Shown in pieces: positions 1-41,063 of a stretch of 64,000 nucleotides of DNA (position 1 is the first letter of the stretch; every line of letters starts with the position of its first letter). The stretch is taken from contig JACOXP010000007.1 in NCBI GenBank assembly GCA_016182295.1, positions 11,457 through 75,456 on the forward strand, in the 5' to 3' direction. Source of the stretch: Candidatus Harrisonbacteria bacterium (GTDB taxonomy: Bacteria; Patescibacteriota; Minisyncoccia; UBA6257; WO2-44-18). Made by a program: the position numbers and the translations under genes. Below the pieces are notes generated by a model. That model was not told the DNA's origin. It did no database searches and saw only the letters and a list, made by a program, of their open reading frames with translations.

Positions 1-1117
1 CTTGAGAAATCGGCAGGGTCTTTCTGACCAATCTTTCGATATCGCGCAATTCCCGTCGCTGATCCGGCGTTACCAATGAAATGGCGTGCCCGCCGGCTCC
101 CGCGCGGGCGGTGCGGCCGATGCGGTGCACGTAATCCTCGGTGTTGCTTGGCAAATCAAAATTTAATACTAACTCAATGCCGGTAACATCGATGCCTCTT
201 GAAGCGATATCCGTCGCTATCAATACCCGATATCTTCCGAATTTAAAACCATCCAAAGCGTCTCGGCGTTGTTTTAAAGAACGGTTGGAGTGCAACTCCG
301 CGGCGGTATGTCCCATTTCGCGAACTATTCTGCTCAATTTTTTCGCTCCGAATTTTGTTCTGGTGAAAATCAAGGTCGAGCCGGAGTATTGCTGAAGCAG
401 TTTCTCCACCAAGCGAATTTTTGATTCTTTGGAAATAATAAATATTTCCTGCGTTACTTTTTCCACAGTCGTGCCGGACGGAGCCACCTCCACCCGAATC
501 GGCAGTTTCATGTGGGCAGTCGCTATTTTCATAATTTCCGGAGGCAGAGTGGCGGAAAAAAGCATTGTTTGCCGGTCGCGCGGAAGCGCTTGGAAGATTT
601 GTCGCATCTGCGGCGCGAACCCCATGTCAAACATGCGATCTGCTTCGTCCAGCACGGCAATTTTTACGTCATCTAAACGCAAGGTCTTCTGATTCAAATG
701 ATCAATGAGTCTTCCGGGCGTGGCAATAATAATTTTGGGGTCTCGAGCGAGATCTTTTTTTTGCGGCCACATCGGGGCGCCGCCGATCAACACCGCCGTG
801 CGCATCCCCAAATCCGATCCAACTTTTCGCAATGCTTCGTCTACTTGAAGCGCCAACTCGCGGGTCGGCAAGACGATTAAACCCCGATCCTTAGTATTGC
901 GGAGAATCTGAATCATCGGAATACCAAAAGCGAGCGTCTTGCCGGTACCGGTTTGAGCCACTCCAACCACGTCTTTGCCCTGAACGGCTACGGGAATAGC
1001 TTGCTGTTGAATTGGCGTCGGATTTTTATAGCCCAGTTTTTCCAGTTTGCTCAAAAGCGCCGGAGCAATACCCAGCGACATGAAACCCGGTATCGGTGGT
1101 TGAGGAGTTTTGTTCAT
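1..1117 (-). CDS. DEAD-box ATP-dependent RNA helicase; the 3-prime end of the gene runs off the window start
   Basis: Reverse-complement translation from the ATG at 1117 gives MNKTPQPPIPGFMSLGIAPALLSKLEKLGYKNPTPIQQQAIP and then the helicase motifs AQTGTGKT, VLDEADRM, SAT and HRIGRTARAG. It is absent from the ORF track because it runs off the edge. Confidence 0.85.
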   Translation of the reverse strand, partial: MNKTPQPPIPGFMSLGIAPALLSKLEKLGYKNPTPIQQQAIPVAVQGKDVVGVAQTGTGKTLAFGIPMIQILRNTKDRGLIVLPTRELALQVDEALRKVGSDLGMRTAVLIGGAPMWPQKKDLARDPKIIIATPGRLIDHLNQKTLRLDDVKIAVLDEADRMFDMGFAPQMRQIFQALPRDRQTMLFSATLPPEIMKIATAHMKLPIRVEVAPSGTTVEKVTQEIFIISKESKIRLVEKLLQQYSGSTLIFTRTKFGAKKLSRIVREMGHTAAELHSNRSLKQRRDALDGFKFGRYRVLIATDIASRGIDVTGIELVLNFDLPSNTEDYVHRIGRTARAGAGGHAISLVTPDQRRELRDIERLVRKTLPISQ

Positions 1118-1125
1118 TTTTCTAA

Positions 1126-2076
1126 TTATATCCTATTAAGGATCTTTTTTACGTTTTCCATGCTTTCCCAATCGTGAGTGGAAATAACAATAGCGTTGGG
1201 GTCTATTTTTTTCAACGCCTTGAGCTTTTCTTTTATTTCTTCCGGCGGCAATAAATCGCTTTTGCTTAAAAATAAATATTCAGGTTTTTTCGTTAATTCT
1301 TGATTGAAATTTGAAAGCTCGGTTTTAATTATTTTGTAATCTTGCTCCAGGTTTTCGGATTCCGCGGAAATTAAATGGAAAAGGATTTTTGTCCGTTCAA
1401 TGTGCCGCAAGAATTTTATTCCCAATCCCTTGCCGGCTGACGCTCCTTCAATAAGTCCGGGAATGTCCGCCAAAATCAATTTGTAATAAGCGCCCAAATT
1501 CGGCTCCAGAGTGGTGAAGGGATAGTTCGCTACTCTGCTTTTAGCTTTGGTCAATTCGTTTAGTAAACTGGACTTCCCGGCATTGGGCAGACCGATAATT
1601 CCGACATCCGCGATTAATTTGAGCTCTAATCGAATAGTGAAGCTTTCCCCTTCCTTGCCGTATTGAAATTCCGTGGGGCTGGTTCGATGCGGCGCTCGGA
1701 ATTTGAAATTGCCTTTACCGCCATGTCCGCCTTGAGCCGCTAAAACTCTTTCCCCGCTTTTTACGATTTCCAGAACTTCTCCGGCTTCAATTTTATGAAT
1801 TACCGTGCCAACCGGAACTTTTAAAATTAAATCCGCGCCGTCTTTGCCATCGCGGTATTGGCTTCGGCCGTCCGATCCATCTTTGGCAATGGCTTCTTTT
1901 TTATTTCTAAACTGAATTAGCGCGATTAAGTCAGGAACGCCTTCAAAATAAATACTGCCGCCATTGCCGCCGTCGGCGCCAGTCGGCCCAAGAGCCAATT
2001 TATTCTTTTCAAAAGCCACCGCGCCTTTCCCGCCGTTTCCGGCGCGGACTTTGATAGTTACATCGTCGATTAACAT
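1126..2076 (-). CDS. obg: Obg family GTPase
   Basis: MLIDDVTIKVRAGNGGKGAVAFEKNK is the Obg N-terminal glycine-rich fold. It is followed by a G domain (GLPNAGKSSLLN, DIPGLIEGA). Confidence 0.85.
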   Translation of the reverse strand: MLIDDVTIKVRAGNGGKGAVAFEKNKLALGPTGADGGNGGSIYFEGVPDLIALIQFRNKKEAIAKDGSDGRSQYRDGKDGADLILKVPVGTVIHKIEAGEVLEIVKSGERVLAAQGGHGGKGNFKFRAPHRTSPTEFQYGKEGESFTIRLELKLIADVGIIGLPNAGKSSLLNELTKAKSRVANYPFTTLEPNLGAYYKLILADIPGLIEGASAGKGLGIKFLRHIERTKILFHLISAESENLEQDYKIIKTELSNFNQELTKKPEYLFLSKSDLLPPEEIKEKLKALKKIDPNAIVISTHDWESMENVKKILNRI

Positions 2077-2195
2077 GTCGGTGCGCAGTATAAGCTAAAA
2101 TGAAGCTAACTACAAGGCGGGCAGTGTCGGTCTGGGGATAACTATTGACTTTCAATAACTACTTGTTAGTATACTATTATCACCACGAAAAAGAC

Positions 2196-2230
2196 CCTTG
2201 CGCAGATACGTCTGCGCCGGGGGCTTTTTC
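2196..2230. terminator. Bidirectional Rho-independent terminator hairpin
   Basis: gcgcaga-tacg-tctgcgc stem-loop followed by cgggggcttttt. It sits immediately after the stop of the 2229..2732 gene. Confidence 0.5.
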
Positions 2231-2732
2231 ATTTTGGGCTTCTAAACAGTAATTTATGCTTCATATCTTCGAGATAAATAATCGGCGCCCCTGTCCGTTT
2301 TAACAGAATTGAACATTTGGCGATAGGCGCGGGAGAAACGATGACACAAGGTATTTTCTTCTCCTGCCAAAAACGAACAAGAGACGCGTAGTCCCCATCG
2401 CTTGCAACGAGAAGAACGGCTTCAGGACAAGCTTCATAGTAATCCTTCATAGCTTGGAGCACTAAATCCGCATCGCAGTTTCCCTTCGCTTTCCCAGATC
2501 CATCGTAAACAATTTCTTTAAATACTAATTTATACCCCGTGGACTGCAACGAGGTATATAAATCGGCATGTTTCGACATAAGCCCGATGAATAAATATGC
2601 CTCCGTAACACTAAATTTTTGACGTATCCATGACCTAAACCTCCGGTAATCAAGTTTCCACATAGATGACTCGACGCCTTTATGTAAATTGGCGCCGTCG
2701 ATATAGGCGTAATTTTTGAATTCTTTTTGCAT
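2229..2732 (-). CDS. NYN-domain (LabA-like, PIN-like) protein
   Basis: YIDGANL...NCDADLVLQAM...LVASDGDYASLVRFWQEKKIPCVIVS is typical of NYN/DUF88. The start was chosen at the internal MQKEF, which abuts the upstream gene. Confidence 0.65.
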   Translation of the reverse strand: MQKEFKNYAYIDGANLHKGVESSMWKLDYRRFRSWIRQKFSVTEAYLFIGLMSKHADLYTSLQSTGYKLVFKEIVYDGSGKAKGNCDADLVLQAMKDYYEACPEAVLLVASDGDYASLVRFWQEKKIPCVIVSPAPIAKCSILLKRTGAPIIYLEDMKHKLLFRSPK

Positions 2733-2733
2733 T

Positions 2734-3372
2734 TTAAAGTAATTCGTCAATGAGATTTTTAATACTCCTATCCTTCAGCCACAACTTTTTAATTTTACCC
2801 CTCATTTCCTGATGTTGCGGATATCCTTTGTCTATTTCCCCACCCATTAAATCCGAAAATTCAATATTTAATAATTCTGTGAGGGATTCTTTAATATCAT
2901 TATATAAATCTTTTGCTATGCCATCTTCTAATAACTTTTTACCAAACGCATAGTAAGTATAAAAATGAAAGATCTCGTGCATGATTATGTTATTTGAAAA
3001 TTGCGACCCGATTTTTACAAAAAAGTAATTTTCTTGAGTATTGTAAGTACAGCGCTCGTTGTTCGTTAAATAAACGGTAATTGTGCCCGCAGGGTACTTA
3101 ATCCCAAAAGTTTTCTCTGCTCTTTCAATAAAGACGTTTTCAATTTTGAGCCACTTATTACGAATAGAATTTATTTCTTTTTCTACATCAATTTTATTTG
3201 TTTTGATGTGTTCCTCAATAAAATGTTTTATTTTCTCTACATCAAAATTTTCCCCGTTAATTTTAGTGTACAGATTTTGAAATTCCGTATAATTTTTTCT
3301 ATTTACGGACTTAGTTGATTTTGTGAAATTCTCCACGTCCTTTGTTAAATCGTAATAGAAAACTAGCTGCAT
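2734..3372 (-). CDS. Hypothetical protein with an HExxH motif (HEIFH); possible metal-dependent hydrolase
   Basis: 212-aa ORF transcribed together with the NYN gene. It has a single HEIFH motif and no other recognisable family signature. Confidence 0.45.
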   Translation of the reverse strand: MQLVFYYDLTKDVENFTKSTKSVNRKNYTEFQNLYTKINGENFDVEKIKHFIEEHIKTNKIDVEKEINSIRNKWLKIENVFIERAEKTFGIKYPAGTITVYLTNNERCTYNTQENYFFVKIGSQFSNNIIMHEIFHFYTYYAFGKKLLEDGIAKDLYNDIKESLTELLNIEFSDLMGGEIDKGYPQHQEMRGKIKKLWLKDRSIKNLIDELL

Positions 3373-3524
3373 ATTTCTATAGTATCTTATTATCGCAAAA
3401 CAAAAAAAGCCTGTAGACGAAGCACCTCGGTCTCTCGATAAAAAATGTTGACTGCGGTGAAATTATATCCTTTGCGCGAATCTTTTTTGAGGAACATTAT
3501 AAAACGGCGCTACTCGCTCCCTTA

Positions 3525-4706
3525 CTAAAATCTATGTTTGAATGCTCTCCTAAAACCAGCGTCTTCGGCTTCCTTGACGGTAAACGCGTAAAACTCACCT
3601 TCTTTATCGCCAACTATCGTTCGGTCGTATTGTTGATCCATAGGCAGGTGATAAATTTTGGTCTTTCGACCAGTTTCATCAACATTGATGTTGCATTTTA
3701 TTCTCGGAAACTCGCCAAGTGGTTTGTTTTCAATCACTTCTACACTCAACGCTTGTGCCATCTCTTTTGCCTTTTGTGATAAACTCGTCGAGGTAAAGAA
3801 TATTGGTCTTAAATGTTGCTCGTTGAGCAACTTTGAAAATGCCTCAAAACTTTTCTGATTGCGAGCACCACCGAAATATCTAATCCAATATTCCATTGTC
3901 GTTCCGAACAACTGGAAAACGTGTTTTTCGTGTATCTCTTTGTATTGTGCCCAGTGCTTACATTGGACAATACAGACATCGCCTCCCTTTGTTGCGATAA
4001 TGTCTCGACCGAGGTCTTCGAATCCGTCAATAATGCCTTTGTAGTGGATGTTGTACCCTTTTTGCGAGAATAGGTATCCGACATACATTTCATAATCTCT
4101 CCCGATAGCCCATTTTGATTTATTACGGTTTTTCAAATATCTATCTAACGCTCTTTGATTGCGCTCAACAGAAGGCAGACTTCTGTATTCTTCTGGGGTT
4201 AGATAATCTTTTACCCTGTCTTCATTTTCACCTTCTTCCGCTTCTCCGTCTACGCGAACAGGAATTTCCTCGTTTTCGTTTTCTGCAATTAGTTCAGAAA
4301 TCCACGGGAAAAGTTTCTCTAAGTAATGGAGTTTATAAAGGATAACTTTATTTTGTTTTAATAATTCTCGTTTTTCTTTCTTGATTTCTCGAACGGCTTC
4401 TGCGGCTGTATAGGCGGGGTGTCTTTTGTGTGTTAAATAATCTGCAAGTTTTCCGTCTCGCAATGCAAAATAATCCGCATACGCCTCAGCAAGCCACGGA
4501 AAGCCCATTGAACGCTGGCGCGTGATTTTTTCAATATGTTCGTGGGTAGCTTTCTTTTCTTTGGCAAATTTTTCTTTTTCGATATTGAGCGCATCAAGTT
4601 CGGGTTTCAACTTTCGATATAACTTGGCATCGGCAAAAGCATCTCGTATCCATGAGATAATCCCAAAGAGGATAAACAAACCTACGATTGCGAGTATCAA
4701 TTCCAT
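3525..4706 (-). CDS. Membrane-anchored protein with a coiled coil and a C-terminal Mrr-like restriction-endonuclease-fold (PD-(D/E)xK) domain
   Basis: N-terminal TM helix (ILAIVGLFILFGIISWI), then a K/E-rich coiled coil. The C-terminal half carries GRDYEMYVGYLF...DIIATKGGDVCIVQCKHW, which resembles the Mrr catalytic core. Confidence 0.5.
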   Translation of the reverse strand: MELILAIVGLFILFGIISWIRDAFADAKLYRKLKPELDALNIEKEKFAKEKKATHEHIEKITRQRSMGFPWLAEAYADYFALRDGKLADYLTHKRHPAYTAAEAVREIKKEKRELLKQNKVILYKLHYLEKLFPWISELIAENENEEIPVRVDGEAEEGENEDRVKDYLTPEEYRSLPSVERNQRALDRYLKNRNKSKWAIGRDYEMYVGYLFSQKGYNIHYKGIIDGFEDLGRDIIATKGGDVCIVQCKHWAQYKEIHEKHVFQLFGTTMEYWIRYFGGARNQKSFEAFSKLLNEQHLRPIFFTSTSLSQKAKEMAQALSVEVIENKPLGEFPRIKCNINVDETGRKTKIYHLPMDQQYDRTIVGDKEGEFYAFTVKEAEDAGFRRAFKHRF

Positions 4707-4711
4707 AATTT

Positions 4712-4936
4712 TTATGTCCGCATATCAAATTTTTCGGAAAATGTTTGGTCCGACAAATCGGCGAGAAGCATCCTTTTTTCTTGTTCTATCAATTTCATCA
4801 TGGCATCCGGTGTCATTTTTAACGAAATCGTTCCATAGAGATTTGTCGGCGCAACATGAGAATATCTTTTCGCAGCAATTTGTACGAAGTTTTTGTATAG
4901 CTCGCTCTTTTCTAAGTTCGAGGCTTTATCGAACAA
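4712..4936 (-). CDS. Hypothetical small protein; possibly the 3-prime half of a frameshifted gene
   Basis: 74 aa. It overlaps the upstream ORF by 25 nt near a homopolymer A run. Confidence 0.3.
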   Translation of the reverse strand: MFDKASNLEKSELYKNFVQIAAKRYSHVAPTNLYGTISLKMTPDAMMKLIEQEKRMLLADLSDQTFSEKFDMRT

Positions 4937-5124
4937 AAAACTAAGTGCAATGGCGCGCTTCCATGCATGGCGGTATAAAGCCGCTTCCTGATTTTTTGAC
5001 GCTCTCGGCGTGAACGGCTTTGTTTCGAGTAAAAACTGTTCAAAGCGTTCTTCAAGACGCTTCCGAGCCTCGGCGCGTTCAAGTCGTTTTTTTTCCAGTT
5101 ATCAATAAAAGATCTAATACCCAT
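4912..5124 (-). CDS. Hypothetical small basic protein; possibly the 5-prime half of a frameshifted gene
   Basis: 70-aa ORF that runs directly into ORF 4712..4936. Confidence 0.3.
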   Translation of the reverse strand: MGIRSFIDNWKKNDLNAPRLGSVLKNALNSFYSKQSRSRRERQKIRKRLYTAMHGSAPLHLVFCSIKPRT

Positions 5125-5210
5125 ATGTAAACATTGTAAAGTTTTCTTGAGGTTTTTCCCAAAGTACGGTTTAATGGGAATCGGTCGGGCACAAAATAAG
5201 GGATTTTAAA

Positions 5211-5669
5211 CTAAGTGTCGCTTCGTGAAGAACCAGGAAGATTTTTCGAAATTTCTCTGTGTTCACTTATGCCTCTTGGCATATAATTGCCCATCCGGAG
5301 AACATGCCCGATAGCCGAAATGAAATTGTATTTCTTTGCATACTTTATGAATTTTTTATTCTCCTCGACCATATTTTGTGCCTCAACATATTTCATGAAG
5401 TTATCGGCACCATCACTAAGGGTTTGAGGGGTTATCGATTTCTCAACCAGTTGAGCCATTTTTTTAAGTAATTCTTCTTGAAGCGGCAATGAGCGTTCTA
5501 TTTCATCAGCGTATGCCGACAAACGCCTTTTCTCCTTTTTTGAAAATAGATATATAAGAATAGCGATTGGTGTTGCACCACCAACTACTGTAAAGAAGGA
5601 AGACACAAAAGGCACCATGATATTATTTGAAGCGAACTGCGTCAACAAATTCAAGAAATAAATTAGCAT
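5211..5669 (-). CDS. Hypothetical membrane protein
   Basis: Two N-terminal hydrophobic helices. No recognisable family. Confidence 0.45.
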   Translation of the reverse strand: MLIYFLNLLTQFASNNIMVPFVSSFFTVVGGATPIAILIYLFSKKEKRRLSAYADEIERSLPLQEELLKKMAQLVEKSITPQTLSDGADNFMKYVEAQNMVEENKKFIKYAKKYNFISAIGHVLRMGNYMPRGISEHREISKNLPGSSRSDT

Positions 5670-5960
5670 GTCTAAAAAGTTTGATTAATTGCCGAGCTTG
5701 CCCGGTCTCTCGAACGGGCGCTCAATCCTGCGGTGTGTCTCGGACTTGAACTTGGCTAATGCAAGCAGTATAAGGCTTTTTTGAGCGTCTGAAAAGAACT
5801 GAACTTGAGGCACTCGGGTTAGAAGATGCTTTTATTGTAGCTGAGTTTCGCATCAATTAAGTTGATGCGCCACCTATTTTAATCTTTCAATCTCCACCTT
5901 GTAAGGATATTCTAGCGAGTTTTTTCGGTGCTGGGTGAGGTCTCCGGGTCGGCATCTGTT

Positions 5961-6590
5961 TCAGTAAGACAAAAGGGGGCAAAAGAAGATAAGATACAAA
6001 AAGTCAAAAACAAAGAAAGAACTAAAAAGTACGAGCGTTCCTGTAATCATCAACACGTACACAGTCCGAGAATATATAGAAGGAATAGATCTATCTTTTT
6101 CGGTCTTAAAAAGATTTATGGATTCTTTATCAATCTCATTTAATTCTTTAAAAGCTGTTTTGCTGATGGTACGGGTAGAAATCCAACTATTGTAGAGAAC
6201 CATGAATTTCTCGTTTCTTTTTTCGTAAAACTCAATCAGTTTACGACGTTCGTCTTCAATTGATTTAAATTCTGCTTGGTATTTCTGCTGTGTCCAAAAG
6301 AGCCCGTAGAAAAGAGAGCCAAGCAAAAGAATTTCTCCGACAAAGAAAAGAGGAACGCTTTGGACATACCCAAAAGCTGTAAAACCAAAACCAGCTATTA
6401 AACCAACTGCACCGATAACTGTTGCAGCAAACCCGATGGACTTAAAGTAAATATCCAACTGTTTTGTTCCTAAATCCTCAAGAACTCGTCCTTGGAGCTG
6501 CAGGCTATTCGAGCCGAAATTGTCGTAAAATTCCTTAAACAACGTATCGTCCAAAAGAATTTGGTCTGGATTTTCGTGCGGTTTTTGCAT
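5961..6590 (-). CDS. Hypothetical membrane protein
   Basis: Several hydrophobic segments (AATVIGAVGLIAGFGFTAFGY; TGTLVLFSSFFVF). Confidence 0.45.
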   Translation of the reverse strand: MQKPHENPDQILLDDTLFKEFYDNFGSNSLQLQGRVLEDLGTKQLDIYFKSIGFAATVIGAVGLIAGFGFTAFGYVQSVPLFFVGEILLLGSLFYGLFWTQQKYQAEFKSIEDERRKLIEFYEKRNEKFMVLYNSWISTRTISKTAFKELNEIDKESINLFKTEKDRSIPSIYSRTVYVLMITGTLVLFSSFFVFDFLYLIFFCPLLSY

Positions 6591-6747
6591 GTTTGAATCC
6601 TATCTTAGATATCAATATTTAGTTAATCGGGTCTTCCGATACTTTTTGCTACGGGCGAGCTTCTCGCGGATGGAACTGTGGACGGTCAAGCCTGGTAAGG
6701 TCATTTTACATTTTTTCAGAATATAAATCGAAGGCTCTAACAGCGCC

Positions 6748-7344
6748 TTAGGTTTTAGATAAATTATCTGGGTATTTCTTATATATGTATTCCATTATGT
6801 CCTTACTAAGCTTTCTAGATATTTCTACAGCGTTAACTATATTTTCTTCATCTGATACAGATGGCCTGAGTTTTGTTGTCTCCTCATCTCTGAAATCATT
6901 TATATCGTATCTTATATTATTCAAATTATGGATAGTTACGAGTTTTTTATCTTCAAAATTTATTTCGTAAAATTTAAACACATCTTTATTTTTCAACTGA
7001 ATATTTTTAATACCAAACAAGTTCCTTGTGTCGGTGCTTTTTATTTTATTCCACAATACATCTAGTCGATGCCCTACCTTTACCTCTGATATCAAATCAT
7101 TCTCCGTGTTGTTTAATAATCCTATAAACATTAATGAGTTTAGAATCAGTTCGAAATTATAAGCAATTAAAATGTTGATCTGTCGTGAGTAAGGTGGTGA
7201 CACTGCCTCTGCTCGTAATGTACCGTGTGGATATTCATCTAGGCATCTGCGAACAAAACTGAAGCCGGTTTGTGCTCTAGAAACAGCGCCAACAGCCATA
7301 ACATCTTTAGTTTCCCAATCTTTGAAGAGTCCTTTTATCATATC
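6748..7344 (-). CDS. Hypothetical protein, AT-rich
   Basis: ORF 6748..7395 with the start trimmed to the internal MIKGLF. The family was not recognised. Confidence 0.4.
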   Translation of the reverse strand, partial: DMIKGLFKDWETKDVMAVGAVSRAQTGFSFVRRCLDEYPHGTLRAEAVSPPYSRQINILIAYNFELILNSLMFIGLLNNTENDLISEVKVGHRLDVLWNKIKSTDTRNLFGIKNIQLKNKDVFKFYEINFEDKKLVTIHNLNNIRYDINDFRDEETTKLRPSVSDEENIVNAVEISRKLSKDIMEYIYKKYPDNLSKT

Positions 7345-7709
7345 GTGACCACTAAGGTAATAGAAGAAATAATAATAGCGACAATTGATAGCCAAAAAGC
7401 GTTTTTTGCGTTTTTTCTTACTTCCTGTAATTCATCATGGTCAGTAATCTTAGAGACCAAATCTAGCGGGGGTATCCAAAGACCGCCTTCTTCTGTTTTA
7501 ACAAAACTCCTCGTGTGTTCTCTACCAACTGGTTTGTAAATTTCTTCATCATAAAATTGTTCAATATGCCTTTCATTTAGAGAATATGAAGGCCTTATAT
7601 ATTCCTCTAGCCCTTTCTTGGTAAATCCTCTTTCTGCATTATTTATACAATATCTAGCAGCTGCAATTTGCCAAGGCTCTTTTTGATAATTCTGATTGAG
7701 GAATTTCAT
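7338..7709 (-). CDS. Hypothetical protein with a C-terminal TM helix
   Basis: 123-aa ORF whose C-terminus is AFWLSIVAIIISSITLVVTI. Confidence 0.4.
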   Translation of the reverse strand: MKFLNQNYQKEPWQIAAARYCINNAERGFTKKGLEEYIRPSYSLNERHIEQFYDEEIYKPVGREHTRSFVKTEEGGLWIPPLDLVSKITDHDELQEVRKNAKNAFWLSIVAIIISSITLVVTI

Positions 7710-7749
7710 TCTTGAATATATTTAACTTAATCAGATTTACTCTATGACT

Positions 7750-8109
7750 TTATGTATTGTCCGAGGGGGTATCAATTTTCTCTCGATCCTTTTGCTTTAT
7801 TTCCCTATTTGCTCCAGACGAAATGCGTCCATCAAATTCAAGCCAATCTGCAACGTCCATTTTGCCAGAAGTTAACTTCTGAAAATCCATTTCTTTCTTC
7901 TTTTCGTATTCGGCAGAGTGTTCTCTGTATAACATTATGACTTTTGTGAGAAAGCCGAGAACCACAAAGCTTAGGTAGATCCATCCACCCATTGTTTTCA
8001 ACAAATATTCATAAAAAGGCACAATAATAACAGTGGCTATTCCCAACCCGAACATCCACAGTAAAGAATATTTTATTGTATCTACGATCCAATCACTCTT
8101 ATTTCTCAT
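7750..8109 (-). CDS. Hypothetical membrane protein
   Basis: 119 aa with two to three TM helices. Confidence 0.45.
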   Translation of the reverse strand: MRNKSDWIVDTIKYSLLWMFGLGIATVIIVPFYEYLLKTMGGWIYLSFVVLGFLTKVIMLYREHSAEYEKKKEMDFQKLTSGKMDVADWLEFDGRISSGANREIKQKDREKIDTPSDNT

Positions 8110-8174: not shown

Positions 8175-8264
8175 TGGCGGAAGGGGTGGGATTCGAACCC
8201 ACGAGGCCCGTATAAGGGGCCAAGGTTTAGCAAACCTTTGCCTTAACCGCTAGGCTACCCTTCC
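8175..8264 (-). tRNA. tRNA-Ser (anticodon GCT) with an encoded CCA
   Basis: Reverse complement is GGAAGGG...anticodon loop TTGCTAA...long variable arm...GGGTTCGAATCCCACCCCTTCCGCCA. The 7-bp acceptor stem pairs perfectly. Confidence 0.85.
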
Positions 8265-11744: not shown

Positions 11745-12920
11745 ATGAGGACGGCTATTTTGGGGCTTGGGCGCGAAGGAAAATCGCTTCTTAACTTTTT
11801 AAAAAAGCGCGGCGAAAAGCCCGCGATCCTAGATCAAAAATTGGACTCTGAATACCTTAATCGTCTTAACGATTTTGATATCATCTATCGTTCTCCGGGC
11901 GTTCCTTACAATCTCCCTCAAATTCAAAAAGCTCTTAAAAGCGGGGTAAGGTTTTCCAGCGCCACTAAACTTTTTTTCGATCTTTGCCCCGGGCAAATCG
12001 TCGGAGTTACCGGCACCAAAGGCAAGGGAACGGCCTCAACGCTTATTCATAAAATACTCGCCGCCAGCGGACAGAAAACGTTTCTTGCCGGAAACATCGG
12101 CAAGCCGATGCTCGACGTCCTTTCGAAGCTCGACAAAAAATCCACGGCGATTTTGGAATTATCGAGTTTTCAACTTCAAGATTTGGAAAAATCCCCGCCA
12201 GTCGCGGTTGTGCTTGATGTGTTTCCGGATCATTTGGACGTTCATAAAAACATGAAAGAATATGTCGAGGCGAAAAGTTCTGTGACTAAATACCAAAAAT
12301 TTTCCGACGCGGTATTTTTTTTCAAGGACAATCCCCTGTCGGCCAAAATCGCCCGCTTAAGCCACGGCGCCAAAATCGGAATTGACGGGAATCCTTTCGG
12401 CCTCAAAAAAAATTTGGCGATAGCGGCGGCCGTGGGCGCTTATTTCGATTGTCCGGCCGGAAAAATTTTCCAGACAATTCAATCTTTCAAAGGCAGAGAA
12501 CACCGGTTGGAACTTGTTTCCGAAAAAAACGGGCTGCGGTTTTATAATGATTCGGCCAGCACCAACCCCCAAACAGCGGCGGCGGCCATTACCGAATTGT
12601 CTAAAACTCTATACTCAAAATCTCATACCCTGACGCTAATAACCGGGGGCAAAGATAAAAATCTTAATTATCGGCCGCTTGCTCAGGCAATTAATCGGTC
12701 CGGCAAAGTAAAAGTTTTTCTCTTTGGCGAAAATAAAATGAAAATAAAAAGAGTTTTGCCCAAGGCAAAACTCTGTAAAAATCTTAAAGAAACGGTGGGG
12801 CTCGCGAAAAAATGCGGGCCTGGAGTGATTCTTTTCTCGCCTGCCTCAACCAGTTTCGATATGTTTAAAGACTACGAAGATCGCGGCCGGCAGTTTAAAA
12901 AACTGGTGAAGGCTATTTAG
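11745..12920 (+). CDS. murD: UDP-N-acetylmuramoylalanine--D-glutamate ligase MurD
   Basis: IVGVTGTKGKGTAS, VLDVFPDHLDVH, GREHRLE, YNDSASTNP and LITGGKDK match the Mur ligase / MurD pattern. Confidence 0.8.
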   Translation: MRTAILGLGREGKSLLNFLKKRGEKPAILDQKLDSEYLNRLNDFDIIYRSPGVPYNLPQIQKALKSGVRFSSATKLFFDLCPGQIVGVTGTKGKGTASTLIHKILAASGQKTFLAGNIGKPMLDVLSKLDKKSTAILELSSFQLQDLEKSPPVAVVLDVFPDHLDVHKNMKEYVEAKSSVTKYQKFSDAVFFFKDNPLSAKIARLSHGAKIGIDGNPFGLKKNLAIAAAVGAYFDCPAGKIFQTIQSFKGREHRLELVSEKNGLRFYNDSASTNPQTAAAAITELSKTLYSKSHTLTLITGGKDKNLNYRPLAQAINRSGKVKVFLFGENKMKIKRVLPKAKLCKNLKETVGLAKKCGPGVILFSPASTSFDMFKDYEDRGRQFKKLVKAI

Positions 12921-13653
12921 TGAACCAGAAAAGCGCCGCGTTGCGACCTTTATTGGGGCCGTCTCTGCAACGCGAATAGTAAGCTAGGGTTGCCGGAAAA
13001 TCAGTCATTTCGCACGAAGTGCACCTGTTATAGATGGAAATGTTGGCTTCTCTTAGTCCTACCTCCAAAAGCTGGGAACGGATAATGGTATAAAGGTCGA
13101 AAGATATTTGACCGCACCTCGAGCCCCTTGTTGCTCTTCCAACCGGAAACTTGAAGGTAAGGTCTTTCGCTTCTTCCCAATGAGCCGCCCCATAACAACA
13201 AGGACCGATGCCAAAACCTACAAACGCCTTGGAAGTATTCGGGGAGAACTTATGTCTGGTAAAAAGTTCGTGAATAATACTCGGTCCTCTCGGAGCTTTT
13301 GATCGCTTGGGGATCTCTCGAATTATGCACCGAAATCCGGCATGCAACGCCGCGAATCGCTCTGTTTGCTGATCTAAAACGGCAACCAACGGGCAGTCGG
13401 CGTTAAAAAGCACGATGCGCTGATCCGGCTTAGACACAATGCCGCCGTCCGCTTCATTGCGAGTGCCGATAATCCATTGAGATATTGGAAAATCCTCTTC
13501 GCCCATCTCGACAATTCTGTTTGTAAAATTCGCTCGCGGAGCGAAAACCGGTCCCATTTTCCCCTTAACAATCGGGAAAAGCTCATCAATGTATTCATCG
13601 ACTCCAAAATTGCCGTCCATTCTGCCAAAAAAACTGTAGCGGATTTTCAGCAT
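12913..13653 (-). CDS. pgeF: Peptidoglycan editing factor PgeF / YfiH (DUF152, laccase-domain) family protein
   Basis: FNADCPLVAVLD, LHAGFRC and GIGPCCYGA match the conserved YfiH motifs. Confidence 0.7.
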   Translation of the reverse strand: MLKIRYSFFGRMDGNFGVDEYIDELFPIVKGKMGPVFAPRANFTNRIVEMGEEDFPISQWIIGTRNEADGGIVSKPDQRIVLFNADCPLVAVLDQQTERFAALHAGFRCIIREIPKRSKAPRGPSIIHELFTRHKFSPNTSKAFVGFGIGPCCYGAAHWEEAKDLTFKFPVGRATRGSRCGQISFDLYTIIRSQLLEVGLREANISIYNRCTSCEMTDFPATLAYYSRCRDGPNKGRNAALFWFTK

Positions 13654-13729
13654 TTTCTAATCCTCCAGTTGAAATGGAAAATTTTCAAAGTCCTTCGTAT
13701 GTTAAACTATATACACCAAAATTAAACTT

Positions 13730-14398
13730 ATGCCAATACATCGAACAAAAAATGAAAATTTCTTTAAGAAGTGGTCGCCGAAAATGGCATACGTGTTGGG
13801 TTATACATGCGCGGATGGAGCTTTAACTGTTGGTAAGCGGGGAAACAAGTTTTTGGATTTCACTTCTGTGGACGAAAGTCTTATACAAACCGTTCGCGCG
13901 ACACTCGACTCTAATCATAAAATAAACCGTAAAACCAGAAAGGAAAATTGGCGCCCGGCTTACAGATTACAAATCGGCAGCAAGACTATGTTTGACGATT
14001 TGGGAAAATTGGGATTGACAACCAAAAAAGCAAAACGCTTAGTTTATCCGGATGTTCCCAAAAAGTACTTCGCGGACTTTGTTAGAGGATATTTCGACGG
14101 CGATGGACACGTTAGCCACGGCGCGTATAAAAGGAAGGGTGGAAATGGGGTAAAACAAGTTCTGCTTTCGGGTTTGACGTCGAGCACCAAAAGTTTTTTA
14201 GAAAAACTTAGAAATGATTTAACAAAATTGGGTATTGTGAGTGGTGGTACTCTGTATTACAAAAAGGGGCACCGACTTACATTCTCAATTAACGATAGTT
14301 TTGGTCTATACGAATTCCTTTACAAAAACGCGGGGTATGGCTTATACTTACAAAGGAAAAAGAGAGTTTTCGAGAAATTTTTTAGAATGCGGGCGTAG
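13730..14398 (+). CDS. LAGLIDADG homing endonuclease with two motifs, free-standing
   Basis: Two dodecapeptide motifs: YVLGYTCADGAL and FVRGYFDGDGHV. The stop codon lies inside the first 10 nt of the downstream tRNA-Asp. Confidence 0.8.
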   Translation: MPIHRTKNENFFKKWSPKMAYVLGYTCADGALTVGKRGNKFLDFTSVDESLIQTVRATLDSNHKINRKTRKENWRPAYRLQIGSKTMFDDLGKLGLTTKKAKRLVYPDVPKKYFADFVRGYFDGDGHVSHGAYKRKGGNGVKQVLLSGLTSSTKSFLEKLRNDLTKLGIVSGGTLYYKKGHRLTFSINDSFGLYEFLYKNAGYGLYLQRKKRVFEKFFRMRA

Positions 14399-14463
14399 CG
14401 TAGCCTGGTTATCGCGCCTCCTTGTCACGGAGGAGATCGCCGGTTCAAATCCGGTCGCCCGCG
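14389..14463 (+). tRNA. tRNA-Asp (anticodon GTC)
   Basis: GCGGGCG acceptor stem pairs with CGCCCGC. Anticodon loop TTGTCAC. T-arm GCCGGTTCAAATCCGGT. Discriminator G. No CCA encoded. Confidence 0.8.
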
Positions 14464-14467
14464 CAAG

Positions 14468-14494
14468 AAAAAAACCGCCCTAACGGCGGTTTCT
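14468..14494. terminator. Bidirectional terminator hairpin
   Basis: aaaaaaa-ccgccctaacggcgg-tttct. Confidence 0.5.
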
Positions 14495-14788
14495 GGATTT
14501 GCGGCGAGATTTACTTTTCAGAATTCCGAGTTCCCTGGCATATCTTCGGATTGCTCCATGATGATGGCCGTAACGACTAAACGCGTTACGGAATACTTCC
14601 TGCTCGCTTTGTCTGGTCTGATTGACAACGCTCCTCAAAATTCTATAAGTCCAGCGGGACAGCTCTTCGATATAATGGCGGTTGCTCGTTTTAATCCACA
14701 GCACCGGCACCACCGGACCCTTGCGGTTCGGGTTTGTGCTTTTGCGCCAACATTTGGCAAAAAGCGATCTCCTGCGTTTCATCGGCAA
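14480..14788 (-). CDS. Hypothetical basic protein; possible remnant
   Basis: 102-aa ORF whose stop lies within the terminator hairpin. No family recognised. Confidence 0.25.
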   Translation of the reverse strand: MPMKRRRSLFAKCWRKSTNPNRKGPVVPVLWIKTSNRHYIEELSRWTYRILRSVVNQTRQSEQEVFRNAFSRYGHHHGAIRRYARELGILKSKSRRKSRNRR

Positions 14789-14826: not shown

Positions 14827-15366
14827 TTAGTAGTCAACCAAACCGAGATCTTGGAAGGCTTTTTTATAAGTCCGTAAAATTTCCAGCGCTTGATCGTGAG
14901 TGATTACGAAATCAGGTTCTTGGGCAATGCGATTGCGAATCTTATGAACGTTTTGAATCACTTCAGCGTCGGATAAAAAGCTCGTAGTAATTTGCTTGAA
15001 ACGCTCGTCAGTGGTATCAGCTCGAAATCCGCTGGTTTTGATCGTGTCGTCCATAAGCTTATCGGCTTCCAGAATGGCAAGTTTCCAGTTTTGAATATCG
15101 TGACTCTGAACTCTTTTTTTAATTTGTTTCCAGGCCCGAAGCTGGCGCCAGCGGCCAACATCGCCCATACCCAAAAAATCCATATAGTACTCCCTTCGCG
15201 ATCTCAACCATTCACTTTTGGCAATAGAATAAACACTTCCCCAGATAAAAATTCCGGAAACAATTAAAGCTATCCATTCAAGCGTCGGTATCGCCGGCCG
15301 CAATATACTTCCGGCAATTTCCCTGAAAATAAGAATGTATTCTACCGCTTTATCAATCCACTGCAT
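14827..15366 (-). CDS. Hypothetical membrane-associated protein
   Basis: 179 aa with an N-terminal hydrophobic segment. Overlaps the gatA start by 14 nt. Confidence 0.5.
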   Translation of the reverse strand: MQWIDKAVEYILIFREIAGSILRPAIPTLEWIALIVSGIFIWGSVYSIAKSEWLRSRREYYMDFLGMGDVGRWRQLRAWKQIKKRVQSHDIQNWKLAILEADKLMDDTIKTSGFRADTTDERFKQITTSFLSDAEVIQNVHKIRNRIAQEPDFVITHDQALEILRTYKKAFQDLGLVDY

Positions 15367-38004: not shown

Positions 38005-38028
38005 CACGCCTACAAGCAGGCAGGCTGG

Positions 38029-38099
38029 TCGGACTGCTGGGAGTTGAACCCAGGCCACGTGCTCCCAAAGCACGTATACTACCGTTATACTACAGTCCG
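38029..38099 (-). tRNA. tRNA-Pro (anticodon TGG)
   Basis: Reverse complement is CGGACTGTAGTATAACGGTAGTATACGTGCTTTGGGAGCACG...CTGGGTTCAACTCCCAGCAGTCCGA. It has a C1:G72 pair and discriminator A73. Confidence 0.8.
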
Positions 38100-38705
38100 T
38101 TAGTTATTGAAGACGCGGTCGAACTCATCAAGGGCTCTTGTTGCCCGTTTATTGAGATCGTTGATAGCCTGCGCCTCATCATTAAGTTTATTAATTAAAT
38201 CATTAACTTGTCCATCCAAATAAGCTCTGCCAGGGTCATCAAACTTCGCCCGTAACGTCTCGAAAAGCCGGCTCATATAATCGCCGTAAAAAAGCAATCG
38301 GCTTACCAAAGCGACCTGGGCGGCCACCGCTTCGGTGGCAAATTCGCGGGCTCGCACCGGCCGGATTTGGCTAATATATTGAGCCATTTCCTCAAGTTGG
38401 GAAGAAAGGCGGATTGCTTCCACCTGGGTCTGGCGGTTTTCAATTACGGCGTTAGAGATGGAAATTAAAGCTTCGGAAACATTCCTTTGTCTGTCGAACC
38501 TGGAAACATCGCTCAATCGCGCCAAGTTATTGCGCGACAGCTCGACAATTTTTTCGGCAATAGCGGCGCCCTTGGCTCTTGCGGCGGAAAATTCCCACGG
38601 AATAAAATCCGGACGCAAAATTAAATAACGCGCTCCAAAGACAATAAGAGCGGCTATCACCGCCCCTAAAATATATTGCCATCTCACTATTTTATTAAGC
38701 TTCAT
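38100..38705 (-). CDS. Hypothetical membrane-anchored protein
   Basis: 201 aa with an N-terminal TM helix and a coiled-coil body. Confidence 0.45.
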   Translation of the reverse strand: MKLNKIVRWQYILGAVIAALIVFGARYLILRPDFIPWEFSAARAKGAAIAEKIVELSRNNLARLSDVSRFDRQRNVSEALISISNAVIENRQTQVEAIRLSSQLEEMAQYISQIRPVRAREFATEAVAAQVALVSRLLFYGDYMSRLFETLRAKFDDPGRAYLDGQVNDLINKLNDEAQAINDLNKRATRALDEFDRVFNN

Positions 38706-38778
38706 TTGGCTACTATTATCGTACTCATTTTTTTGATTTTTTCAAGTCCATTTTATTGAACCGGCTTTTATAGTATGG

Positions 38779-38784
38779 TATAAT
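38779..38784 (+). promoter_or_regulatory. Candidate -10 box TATAAT, 6 nt upstream of the GTG start of 38791..39462; possible leaderless transcript
   Basis: ggTATAATggtgctGTG. Confidence 0.3.
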
Positions 38785-38790
38785 GGTGCT

Positions 38791-39462
38791 GTGATTATTA
38801 ATTCTCTTTATAAAGATGCGCAAGCATTGAGAGATGCTGGCTATTCATATAATATGATCAGCGAAGAACTAGGAATAGCTAAAAGCACCCTTAGTAATTG
38901 GTTTAAAGATAGACCATTTAAGCCCAATAGTGCGGTAATAAAAAGAATTCAGCTTGGGCCAATGAAGAGCGCGGAGAAAAAACATAATAAGAAAGTGTCA
39001 GAAATAGAATATTTTAATCAACTCGGCATTCAAGAAGTCGGGTCTTTGACTCAAAGAGATCTTTGGTTGTTGGGACTTGGTTTATATATCGGAGAAGGAA
39101 CAAAATCGCACGAAATGATCAGAATTATCAATGCCAATCCCGCTGTTATTAAATTAGCTATAAAATGGTTTAAAGAAGTTTGTGGCTTATCTAACGAAAA
39201 TATTACTATTGCAATACATTTATATCCAGATAATAACGTAAAGCAGTGTCTTAATTTCTGGCATAACATAACCGGACTACCAAGAAACAACTTCAGGAAA
39301 ACCCAAATAGATCGCAGGACTAATAAATTAAGGATTAAAAATAAGAAACTTCCCTACGGTACAGCCAACCTTAGTATTATTAGTCGAGGTAATGTTGATA
39401 AAGGCGTTCGCCTTTGTCGACGTATACATGGATGGATGAATGGAGTATTATCACAAGCATGA
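38791..39462 (+). CDS. HTH-containing putative LAGLIDADG-like (single-motif) endonuclease
   Basis: N-terminal HTH ISEELGIAKSTLSNWFK, then LWLLGLGLYIGEGTK, which resembles a LAGLIDADG dodecapeptide. Stop lies 1 nt before tRNA-Gly. Confidence 0.45.
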   Translation: MIINSLYKDAQALRDAGYSYNMISEELGIAKSTLSNWFKDRPFKPNSAVIKRIQLGPMKSAEKKHNKKVSEIEYFNQLGIQEVGSLTQRDLWLLGLGLYIGEGTKSHEMIRIINANPAVIKLAIKWFKEVCGLSNENITIAIHLYPDNNVKQCLNFWHNITGLPRNNFRKTQIDRRTNKLRIKNKKLPYGTANLSIISRGNVDKGVRLCRRIHGWMNGVLSQA

Positions 39463-39463
39463 T

Positions 39464-39534
39464 GCGGGTATAGTATAGTGGCATTATGTCAGGTTTCCAA
39501 CCTGAAGACACGGGTTCGAGTCCCGTTACCCGCT
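39464..39534 (+). tRNA. tRNA-Gly (anticodon TCC)
   Basis: GCGGGTA acceptor, anticodon loop TTTCCAA, T-arm ACGGGTTCGAGTCCCGT, discriminator U73. Confidence 0.8.
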
Positions 39535-39614
39535 CACAAGTCTAATTCGCAAGGCAGACGATCGCCAAATCTGATTTGTATGGGACGTTATTTAGAAATA
39601 AAAAACTCCCGACG

Positions 39615-41063
39615 TTATGTCGAGAGTGTTTGATCGTCTAGATCTTTTTTGTAAAATTTAATCTGTTTCTCGCCGTTGACTTCTTCCAACTTAACCACGA
39701 CCGTATCGGCCAGTTTGATCTCATCAGACTCGACCATTCGAGCGATTTTGGTTCTGATAAATTTTTCCAAGCAATCTTCAAGAGCTTGAGCGCCAAACTC
39801 GCTCTTTTTTACGGAGAGATCAACGAGGTGGTTCATCGCCTCTTGATCTACTTTTAACCCAAAGGGTAATTTCGATTTGGCCAAATCATCATTTAAGTTA
39901 CGAATTAGAAGCTTAAAAATCCTGATAAGGTGCTGGGGTTCGAGTGGTTGAAAGATGACAATTTTATTTACCCGATTCGTAAGCTCAGACGGCAATTTTT
40001 CCCTAAATTTTTCGATAATGCTGTTACGGATCACGTCATCGCGTTTTCTGGAGTCGACTTCATGCGAACTGTCGGCCTGAAAACCCATATGTTTGCTCAT
40101 TTCAGCAATTTCTTCGGCGATAACTTTGCCGATGATTATAATAAAAGAATTTTTGAAACTAGTCGTCTGTTTTTCAGAAATTTGCAGTTGGCCCGTCTCC
40201 ATAATTTCCAACAAAATGTTGAGCAGCACCGGATGCGAGTTTTCGATTTTATCAAAGACAACAATTGAAGTTAAATTCTTGGGTGGATTGCTGGGCTCGT
40301 AAACCCAACCGAAACGGCACATTTCTTCTAGTCTCTTAAAAACACCATCGAGTTCAGAAAGTTCCTTGTTGAAACTTATCAACTCATCGGCCATTTTTTT
40401 TCTTTTCCCTTCCAAAAGGGCGGCTTCCGCTTGTAAATTAGTAATCTCGTCGTCAATCTTCTGGGCTTCGTCATCGAAATTTTCTTGACGTTCTAAAACT
40501 AATTCTTTCATCGCCGTTTCTTTATTTTTAATCTCATCACTTAGAGAACGGATTTCCTCGCCAATTTCCTTGGCTTTCTGCTTAACGTTAAGCAATTCTT
40601 GGCATCTTTTGATAGTCCTGCCGATTTCCTCTTTGTGTTCCCGAGCAAGGTATTTGTGATGATGCCTGTCAAGATTCCATTGGCTCAAGGCCGGATAAGA
40701 AGCAAGTTGTTCAATTTCTTGGGCTTGGGCCTCGTCATCAATATCAGAGTCAATCTCAGAGGAATCGGAAAGATTGGAGCAGGTAATCCTGGTAAATGCT
40801 TGCGGGTCTCCGAATAGCAACTTGGCCAGCATCTCCGGCACACGAATCTTTCCAACCCCAGTTGGTCCAAGAAATAGCACGGAAAAAACAGGGCGGCTAC
40901 GATTCCTCGCTGGAGAAGAATAATTCTCAAGCGCCTCAACCAAAGCTTCAACCGCCCCATCTTGACCGATAATCTCTTCCTGTAGAAATCCAATTACCTT
41001 TTTCATCCTCTTGCTAATCTTTTTGTCATCGAGGTGGATCAACTTCCTTTCTTTGCCTTCCAT
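39615..41063 (-). CDS. ClpB/ClpA D2-like AAA+ protein with a degenerate active site and a ~170-aa coiled-coil insertion
   Basis: VLFLGPTGVGKI (Walker A with GKT changed to GKI). SIVVFDKIENSHPVLLNILLEIMETGQL (Walker B DE changed to DK). The sensor-1 TSN is lost and the sensor-2 Arg is Gln in GAQALED. A C-terminal ClpB_D2-small-like domain is present. Confidence 0.75.
   Translation of the reverse strand: MEGKERKLIHLDDKKISKRMKKVIGFLQEEIIGQDGAVEALVEALENYSSPARNRSRPVFSVLFLGPTGVGKIRVPEMLAKLLFGDPQAFTRITCSNLSDSSEIDSDIDDEAQAQEIEQLASYPALSQWNLDRHHHKYLAREHKEEIGRTIKRCQELLNVKQKAKEIGEEIRSLSDEIKNKETAMKELVLERQENFDDEAQKIDDEITNLQAEAALLEGKRKKMADELISFNKELSELDGVFKRLEEMCRFGWVYEPSNPPKNLTSIVVFDKIENSHPVLLNILLEIMETGQLQISEKQTTSFKNSFIIIIGKVIAEEIAEMSKHMGFQADSSHEVDSRKRDDVIRNSIIEKFREKLPSELTNRVNKIVIFQPLEPQHLIRIFKLLIRNLNDDLAKSKLPFGLKVDQEAMNHLVDLSVKKSEFGAQALEDCLEKFIRTKIARMVESDEIKLADTVVVKLEEVNGEKQIKFYKKDLDDQTLST

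Follow-up and report, generated by a model that had tools for sequence, protein, structure and literature searches.

Putative homing-type endonuclease genes directly upstream of tRNA-Asp and tRNA-Gly in Patescibacteria

The free-standing homing endonuclease SegB is encoded in the tRNA gene cluster of phage T4, recognises a tRNA-gene motif and drives the inheritance of this region (PMC2330249). Here we describe two genes, ORF1 and ORF2 (ORF, open reading frame), from a 64,000-nucleotide (nt) stretch of a Candidatus Harrisonbacteria genome (assembly GCA_016182295.1, contig JACOXP010000007.1, positions 11,457–75,456), which we call the window. ORF1 encodes a predicted LAGLIDADG endonuclease and runs into a tRNA-Asp gene, and ORF2 encodes a protein with a helix-turn-helix (HTH) domain and ends just before a tRNA-Gly gene. 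Judging by the sequences, we consider it fairly probable that both are free-standing homing-type endonuclease genes that have entered the stretch separating a tRNA gene from its promoter and are expressed from the tRNA transcript. SegB seems to be the closest functional analogue. In both cases a free-standing nuclease gene is found among tRNA genes, and relatives lack the gene at the homologous site. The features of SegB itself are the conserved tRNA-gene motif in its recognition site and the driven inheritance of its own gene together with neighbouring tRNA genes. However, SegB is a GIY-YIG enzyme of a phage and spreads in co-infection, whereas ORF1 and ORF2 have a LAGLIDADG or other fold, reside on a bacterial chromosome, keep to one tRNA identity superphylum-wide, run into the tRNA and have no evident route of transfer.

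In bacteria of the Candidate Phyla Radiation (CPR), LAGLIDADG genes have been described within insertions and introns of the 16S and 23S rRNA genes (PMC11270868; PMC11809585), and group I introns in some CPR tRNAs were mentioned in passing (PMC8172020). The rRNA-associated genes occur in the same bacterial group, belong to the same superfamily as ORF1 and have conserved structural-RNA genes as targets. They differ in being encoded inside the intervening sequences, whereas ORF1 and ORF2 are located next to the RNA gene, not in it, and the window has an uninterrupted tRNA. Another described arrangement is collaborative (trans) homing, for which cyanophage F-CphI and the psbA intron are an example (PMC6083498; review PMC3984707). 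About one third of the loci of the ORF1 family resemble it, since a free-standing endonuclease shares one locus with a group I intron that has no ORF, but the tRNA-Asp of the window and most ORF1-linked tRNA-Asp genes have no intron, and the enzyme class differs. In the open-access literature we found no description of chromosomal nuclease families abutting specific tRNA genes in CPR bacteria.

Two gene families and the tRNA genes that follow them

The features discussed below are listed in Table 1. The tRNA genes were called with ARAGORN and Rfam, and both found 11 tRNAs in the window. ORF1 matches Pfam LAGLIDADG_3 in two stretches (E = 3e-16, 59.9 bits, cutoff 22.5). Its dodecapeptide motifs, YVLGYTCADG and FVRGYFDGDG, both carry the terminal conserved acidic residue, and in an alignment of 28 homologs from many candidate phyla D29/G30 and D125/G126 are unchanged throughout. 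The profile of the ORF1 homologs (family 1; 2112 homologs at 90% clustering, Patescibacteria) matched PDB entry 2dch, deposited as a putative homing endonuclease, over residues 20–169 (E = 1.6e-6). By its sequence, ORF1 is a bona fide LAGLIDADG protein. The initial annotation of the window had proposed a protein of 222 amino acids (aa) with two dodecapeptide motifs that ends 9 nt into tRNA-Asp. The Pfam match and the invariance of D29 and D125 bear out the first part; the overlap is in fact 10 nt, and the TAG stop codon (14396–14398) forms U8-A9-G10 of the tRNA. ORF2 had been said to end 1 nt before a complete tRNA-Gly(TCC), and it does (39462 and 39464). Both genes had also been described as free-standing rather than intron-encoded, and as co-oriented and flush with their tRNA. 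This description holds: both tRNAs are intact, both ORFs lie outside and upstream of them, and the junctions are the 10-nt overlap and the 1-nt spacer. No further copies of ORF1 or ORF2 were found elsewhere in the window.

The LAGLIDADG ancestry of ORF2 is plausible but unproven. The initial annotation had assigned to it an HTH and a LAGLIDADG-like motif. In the window protein the HTH scores weakly (HTH_3, E = 7e-4, which does not reach the Pfam cutoff), and it was detected in 22 of 26 members of the ORF2 family (family 2; 763 homologs at 90% clustering, Patescibacteria), with a best E of 9.5e-6, so this part of the assignment stands. For the LAGLIDADG-like part, we obtained a weak match only: the C-terminal motif GLYIGEGTK can be aligned in register to I-DmoI, at its second LAGLIDADG domain (E 0.006–0.012), the shared pattern being GLY[IV]xEGxK...RIxN...W, including GxxxEGxK. 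Pfam gave no LAGLIDADG match for the 26 family-2 members and 4 paralogs (E ≤ 1) or for 10 distant relatives (E ≤ 0.1), and only HTH families were found. Foldseek searches of the PDB with models of the full ORF2 protein and of its C-terminal domain returned no LAGLIDADG structure, only non-significant OmpA/MotB-like matches. The AlphaFold2 models were fairly confident overall (predicted local distance difference test, pLDDT, 84 and 80.5) and weak over the motif helix and hairpin. Comparison of families 1 and 2 by hhalign gave nothing with shallow profiles; with deeper profiles GEG was placed over ADG in register, but the alignment was not significant (probability 2%, E = 0.023). Across Pfam and NCBIfam, ORF1 and ORF2 matched only LAGLIDADG or HTH models and, below threshold, NCBIfam models built on archaeal host proteins. 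The invariant residues of family 2 are G95, G97, Y99, G101, E102, G103 and K105. A family-2 protein identical to ORF2 (P0121) is annotated in a Candidatus Harrisonbacteria metagenome-assembled genome, in line with a Patescibacteria origin of the window. The C-terminal domain of family 2, which Pfam does not cover, characterises a superfamily that comprises some 1770 representative clusters (50% identity), and HTH domains were present in all 10 members checked. The guanine-cytosine (GC) content of ORF2 is 35%, against 44.6% for the window, and falls in the lowest 2.6% of 670-nt windows. The likeness to archaeal LAGLIDADG enzymes lies in the family-1 match to 2dch and the weak ORF2 match to domain 2 of I-DmoI; the difference is that ORF2 has one putative domain of this kind and an N-terminal HTH. 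I-DmoI and the 2dch protein are both encoded in archaeal rRNA introns.

Table 1. Coordinates of the features in the window and in related loci (L numbers)
Feature	Position	Strand	Remarks
ORF1	13730..14398	+	ATG start, 222 aa; predicted free-standing two-domain LAGLIDADG endonuclease gene
tRNA-Asp(GUC)	14389..14464 (ARAGORN), 14389..14463 (Rfam)	+	complete, without intron; Rfam 65 bits
Intergenic region, 76 nt	13654..13729	+	between the divergent Cu-oxidase_4 gene and ORF1; presumed promoter region of the ORF1-tRNA-Asp unit
GC hairpin aaccgccctaacggcggtt	14470..14495		A/T runs on both sides; between convergent tRNA-Asp and 179-aa gene
Cu-oxidase_4 (PgeF/YfiH-like) gene	12913..13653	-	left synteny anchor of the filled site
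179-aa gene, function not assigned	14827..15366	-	right synteny anchor; followed by gatA and gatC
Promoter-like site TTGAAC-17-TGnTATAAT	38756..38784	+	10/12 matches, extended -10 TG; ends 6 nt before the ORF2 GTG
ORF2	38791..39462	+	GTG start, 223 aa; HTH and uncharacterised alpha/beta domain with LAGLIDADG-like motif LGLGLYIGEGTK
tRNA-Gly(UCC)	39464..39535	+	complete; Rfam 69.7 bits; 1-nt spacer after the ORF2 stop
Hairpin	39605..39627		between tRNA-Gly and a convergent 482-aa gene; terminator-like site on the - strand
ORF2-like paralog, L002	2175-2837	-	upstream of tRNA-Ile(UAU) 2111-2184(-), 10-nt overlap; about 28% identity (one measured)
ORF2-like paralogs at tRNA-Met(CAU)	L022 1408; L023 120; L042 3529; L065 1141
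ORF2-like paralog at tRNA-Trp(CCA)	L068 1804
tRNA-Asp introns	L066 1045-1285; L036 4692-4925; L001 4697-4911		about 27 other family-1 loci

The gene neighbourhoods were compared in the 80 best family-1 loci from GTDB species genomes (two are truncated by contig ends, which leaves 78 evaluable) and in 80 family-2 loci from metagenomes, 79 of them with room downstream. Family 1 directly precedes tRNA-Asp in 77 of the 78 evaluable loci. An intact, co-oriented tRNA-Asp(GTC) lies directly downstream in 47 loci, at gaps from -86 to +56 nt (-10 in 13 loci, -15 in 10, -23 in 4 and +1 to +20 in 14), and about 30 of the 32 loci in which ARAGORN found no tRNA-Asp hold this tRNA in two pieces. The sole exception, L062 (369-1061), is upstream of tRNA-Val(UAC) at 1103. 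Genes of the L062 type represent a family-1 variant of 319–333 aa with an extra N-terminal HTH. In family 2, 78 of 80 loci have tRNA-Gly(TCC) directly after the ORF, usually at a distance of 1–26 nt. Unrelated contexts of the first gene in relatives had been named in the initial annotation as evidence against its reading; the opposite was found, as each protein family keeps to one tRNA identity throughout hundreds of Patescibacteria. The module of ORF1 and tRNA-Asp has stayed together: relative to the gat genes, its orientation in the window is opposite to that in locus L001. The adjacency of the nuclease and tRNA genes is far beyond chance.

ORF2-like paralogs, consisting of an HTH and the C-terminal domain (E 1e-25 to 5e-43 against the family-2 hidden Markov model), were found directly upstream of other tRNAs at gaps of -10 to +15 nt. 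The ORF2-like subfamilies appear to be each dedicated to a different tRNA. In loci L157 and L158, a 158-aa ORF with a zinc-ribbon/HNH motif (CLNCHHLIHH; Pfam HNH E ~0.01–0.03) ends 6 nt before tRNA-His(GTG) at 620; nucleases so placed would then be of three types.

We also considered whether the pairs are fortuitous neighbours that share neither a functional nor a selfish link and are adjacent because the genomes are compact and gene order is conserved. Other genes do abut tRNAs at 0–60 nt, among them several genes upstream of tRNA-Met. The gene of a predicted 201-aa membrane/coiled-coil protein at 38100-38705(-) leaves no gap to tRNA-Pro at 38026-38099(-), and in locus L082 a gene of this type (963-1559(-)) adjoins tRNA-Ile (878-952(-)), a different tRNA from that in the window, with a gap within 0–10 nt. 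Since an unrelated membrane-protein gene also abuts a tRNA, flushness alone is not special in these compact genomes, and this counts against our interpretation of the two genes. Nevertheless, we regard chance neighbourhood as highly improbable, because the pairing outlasts rearrangement, both module inversion and differing neighbours, holds in the 77/78 and 78/80 loci, and extends to paralogous subfamilies that each occupy a different tRNA.

Filled and empty tRNA-Asp sites and the age of the families

Related tRNA-Asp loci were sampled independently of the nuclease, with homologs P0241–P0250 of the 179-aa gene as the anchor and the surrounding DNA taken from relatives. This empty-site sample comprised five distinct tRNA-Asp loci (L243, L245, L247, L252 and L255) and concerned family 1. 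ORF1 was sought by tblastn and was absent from all five. In the window, the filled site reads: gene at 11745-12920, Cu-oxidase_4, ORF1, tRNA-Asp, 179-aa gene, gatA. Locus L252 is a textbook syntenic empty site for ORF1. It reads gatA, 188-aa gene, tRNA-Asp, 84 nt, Cu-oxidase_4 and the next gene, with orientations as in the window. The Cu-oxidase_4 gene of L252 (2014-2763) is 44% identical over its full length to that of the window, the next gene is 48% identical, and the 669-bp ORF1 that separates tRNA-Asp from Cu-oxidase_4 in the window has no counterpart there. In L255, the order tRNA-Met, tRNA-Met, 133 nt, tRNA-Asp represents the nuclease-free form of the common tRNA-Met/ORF/tRNA-Asp layout. 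The GatA protein was compared in L243, L245, L247 and L001; its identity to the window protein was 70–77% in the three nuclease-free loci and 74% in nuclease-bearing L001. Thus, ORF1 is present and absent at about equal phylogenetic distance. Because it is missing from equally close relatives, ORF1 is dispensable and patchily distributed. Its patchy presence and the invariance of the catalytic residues speak for a selfish gene of the homing type rather than for a domesticated factor. The comparison of related tRNA-Asp loci, which the initial annotation had proposed, therefore revealed a filled/empty polymorphism at the same syntenic site, as a homing-type element predicts. Taken together, the interpretation given in the initial annotation, with tRNA genes or their flanks as homing targets, is supported in part.

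Two of the nuclease-free loci also contain the remnant 3' half of a second, different tRNA-Asp allele (L247 5283-5316(-), L252 1817-1840(-); also L253 and L254). The remnant lies downstream of the functional gene, at a distance of 63 nt in L247 and 15 nt in L252, and in L252 it is nearly identical to the 3' half of the window allele. No such remnant was found in about 49 nuclease-bearing loci.

Besides the flush membrane-protein gene, several results weigh against the interpretation of the genes as homing-type elements. The empty-site sample is small (five loci) and covers family 1 only; for ORF2, no empty tRNA-Gly site was found, with no tRNA-Gly loci sampled independently of the nuclease. 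Both families are old and well conserved, with a mean column identity of 61–62% and identities of 45–60% between distant lineages. The neighbor-joining tree of family 1 broadly tracks taxonomy. Between the window and L001, ORF1 is 58% identical and its neighbours are 42–74% identical, and its inheritance between these two looks largely vertical. We found no near-identical copies in distant hosts (the best non-self matches were 60% for ORF1 and 68% for ORF2), no degenerate copies among the 80 best loci, and no vector, since viral contigs lack close relatives. Finally, the nuclease-bearing tRNA-Asp is intact and shows no consistent "immune" change at the anticodon loop.

Two ideas about the spread of the genes were rejected. 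A phage vector finds no candidate, as viral contigs carry only distant LAGLIDADG relatives (27–43% identity; full-length ≤36%) and almost no family 2. A tRNA is present in only 3 of 82 viral loci, all of them in tRNA arrays of large phages (contigs of 141–427 kb). The viral relatives near tRNAs (L169 3001-3651, with tRNA-Trp at 3705, L241 and L242) echo T4 SegB. Inheritance of the nuclease and the tRNA as one cassette was also not borne out: their identities are weakly correlated (r = 0.23), and identical tRNAs stand beside nucleases that are 44% identical. The tRNA evolves too slowly for a strong test of such co-inheritance.

An alternative already raised by the initial annotation is that the proteins are domesticated host factors, no longer mobile, which would serve in locus-specific DNA binding, in the regulation of the tRNA operon, much as WhiA arose from LAGLIDADG enzymes, or in binding of the tRNA precursor. 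It would account for the deep conservation of intact ORFs over many candidate phyla, for a family-1 tree that roughly tracks taxonomy with a divergence like that of neighbouring genes, for the retention of the families in streamlined genomes of about 1 Mb, for the HTH domain in family 2 and for viral contigs without close relatives. In the known cases of domesticated LAGLIDADG regulators, for example WhiA, the catalytic acidic residues have been lost. A WhiA-like history would be expected to show this loss and universal vertical presence in the lineage, whereas the residues are invariant here and five of five independently sampled relatives are without ORF1. The absence of ORF1 from these independently chosen loci, one of them a perfectly syntenic empty site, marks it as dispensable, and the GC content of ORF2 is atypically low. 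These results weaken the domestication hypothesis, and we consider it unlikely, albeit the least unlikely of the alternatives.

Introns and D-stem variation in the linked tRNA-Asp genes

The tRNA-Asp genes found in two pieces are interrupted by a group I intron. It is inserted after U35 of the anticodon in about 30 of the 80 family-1 loci, and 25 of these introns were fully delimited. The 5' half of about 36 nt begins at the end of the ORF, and the 39-nt 3' half follows 196–243 nt further on; ARAGORN misses such split genes. The Rfam Intron_gpI scores were 82 bits (L066) and 52.8 bits (L036). Intron-bearing and intron-less loci are intermingled on the nuclease tree, one case being the window, which lacks the intron, and its sister L001, which has it. 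The exons are 97% identical between intron-less L077 and intron-bearing L032/L035, and the anticodon loop is invariant between intron-bearing and intron-less linked alleles. For this reason we rejected the idea that a change at the intron site confers immunity. Other Rfam group I intron matches in the same loci, L001 6197-6407(+) and L030 1244-1514(-), with 62 and 57 bits, are presumably in other structural-RNA genes.

It is conceivable that ORF1 is the collaborative (trans) homing or maturase partner of this intron. It would then cut the intron-less anticodon site and mobilise the ORF-less intron, or aid its splicing, and the intron-less state of the window would be derived. Consistent with this are the intron of 196–243 nt in about 30 of 80 loci, its scattered occurrence on the nuclease tree, which calls for many gains or losses, and its absence from all five nuclease-free alleles. 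Free-standing endonucleases that target intron insertion sites are known (PMC3984707). However, 47 of about 77 nuclease-bearing alleles, that of the window included, are intron-less and have the same anticodon loop, which would make them targets of their own nuclease. No intron accompanies family 2, as 78 of 78 adjacent tRNA-Gly genes are intact, and the difference between 0/5 and 30/77 is not statistically significant. We therefore consider an intron partnership improbable, more so than domestication.

Another part of the linked tRNA-Asp is unusually variable. The D-stem (positions 10–13 and 22–25; L001–L080, window 14398-14413) is hypervariable with compensatory changes, and its variants include GCTC, GTGT, GAGG, GAAC, GCGT and others, with C8 or G9 in some alleles. 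The per-site entropy of the D-stem is 1.21 in the linked tRNA-Asp versus 0.2–0.3 for tRNA-Thr and tRNA-Arg. The D-stem of the neighbouring elongator-type tRNA-Met is almost always GCTC, which is also found in tRNA-Thr and tRNA-Arg. Of the 25 intron-bearing alleles, 24 have a canonical or near-canonical D-stem (GCTC, GCTT, GTTC), as do about half of the 49 linked alleles without an intron, and all five nuclease-free tRNA-Asp alleles have GCTC or near-canonical GCTT. The patterns of the D-stem, the intron and the remnants fit an arms race, but they are uncorrected for phylogeny and include few empty sites, and so they are suggestive only.

A wider scenario can be outlined on this basis, although we regard it as doubtful. 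The genes would belong to an undescribed system of Patescibacteria in which several nuclease families are each parasitic on a single tRNA gene, with two-domain LAGLIDADG proteins at tRNA-Asp, the HTH superfamily at tRNA-Gly, tRNA-Met, tRNA-Ile and tRNA-Trp, and HNH proteins at tRNA-His. Their messages would be leaderless and punctuated by tRNAs. In an arms race with the nuclease, rewriting of the D-arm or the anticodon intron would serve as an escape, and the tRNA halves would be scars of allele replacement.

Proposed expression from the tRNA transcript and implications

In four family-1 loci (L014, L021, L027 and L033), the ORF makes up the entire spacer between tRNA-Met and tRNA-Asp. Its start codon, in the sequence encoding MPI(F/Y)K, is located 2–4 nt past the 3' end of tRNA-Met, and its end falls within tRNA-Asp or stops 3 nt short of this gene. 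The 2–4 nt before the ATG leave no room for a promoter or a Shine-Dalgarno sequence, which suggests a tRNA-punctuated, leaderless mRNA. For ORF2, the promoter-like site 6 nt before the GTG indicates that the transcript would be leaderless or nearly so. In the nuclease-free tRNA-Asp alleles, a TATAAT-like box precedes the tRNA by about 15 nt; in nuclease-bearing alleles the ORF takes this place. Between the ORF and the tRNA, no position-conserved promoter-like signal was found in 49 and 79 loci. An internal tRNA promoter at the 3' end of the ORF was considered, as the window contains TTTACA-18-TATACT (14319-14348), but it is not position-conserved over these loci and was rejected. In the intergenic region upstream of ORF1 (13654..13729), a consensus scan detected no sigma70-like site at its threshold; TTCAAA-18-TATATA, seen there by eye, may be a promoter. 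The hairpin 3' of tRNA-Asp contains a terminator-like site on the minus strand (14487..14474) and is likely a bidirectional terminator.

Apparently, each family would fill the stretch between one tRNA (two-domain LAGLIDADG proteins at Asp-GUC, the HTH family at Gly-UCC) and its promoter or the upstream tRNA. The ORF may form part of the tRNA precursor transcript, as its 5' leader or as a spacer, and may be freed by tRNA processing, so that the mRNAs would be leaderless, with ends set by this processing. If the stop codon is part of the tRNA, cleavage by RNase P would remove it and compete with full-length translation, which may keep the expression of the nuclease low. The protein would cut nuclease-free alleles of the same tRNA locus, either within the 5' portion of the tRNA gene or where the promoter and the tRNA meet, and repair from the nuclease-bearing copy would install the gene. 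In its position between an essential single-copy tRNA and the promoter, a clean deletion of the gene would be costly, which may help it to persist. In mitochondria, tRNA processing defines the ends of mRNAs, a principle known as tRNA punctuation. The four family-1 loci described above resemble this in that the ORF is bounded by tRNAs with spacers of 0–4 nt; they differ in that a single selfish-looking ORF on a bacterial chromosome is involved, and that processing is here a prediction.

Some observations concern the surroundings of the two genes. Homologs of the 179-aa gene (about 180–300 aa) have the C-terminal motif AWEAHKxRNxIAH and are syntenic with the tRNA-Met/tRNA-Asp cluster in many lineages; they are located upstream of tRNA-Met in L027, L040–L042, L045, L046, L054, L055, L059 and L064. 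At about 2200–8100 of the window, 3' of tRNA-Ser(GCT) (8175-8264(-)), the GC content is low, 30–37% against 44.6%. By their sequences alone, the ORFs of this region look like NYN/LabA-like, restriction-endonuclease-like and several small membrane proteins, and the region looks like a genomic island integrated at tRNA-Ser.

If the proteins are active, the two families, with at least 2100 (family 1) and at least 760 (family 2) clusters at 90% identity, would constitute large unexploited families of rare cutters, whose natural targets would be among the most conserved sequences in biology. The C-terminal domain of family 2 is a candidate for a new nuclease or DNA-binding fold. Activity would extend the SegB paradigm from phages to bacterial chromosomes, and the pairing of a free-standing nuclease with an ORF-less intron at one locus would offer a natural test of the proposed origin of mobile introns. 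The system would also be a case in bacteria of mRNAs whose ends are set by tRNA processing, and would help to explain the unusual, hard-to-annotate tRNA genes and the tRNA introns of the CPR.

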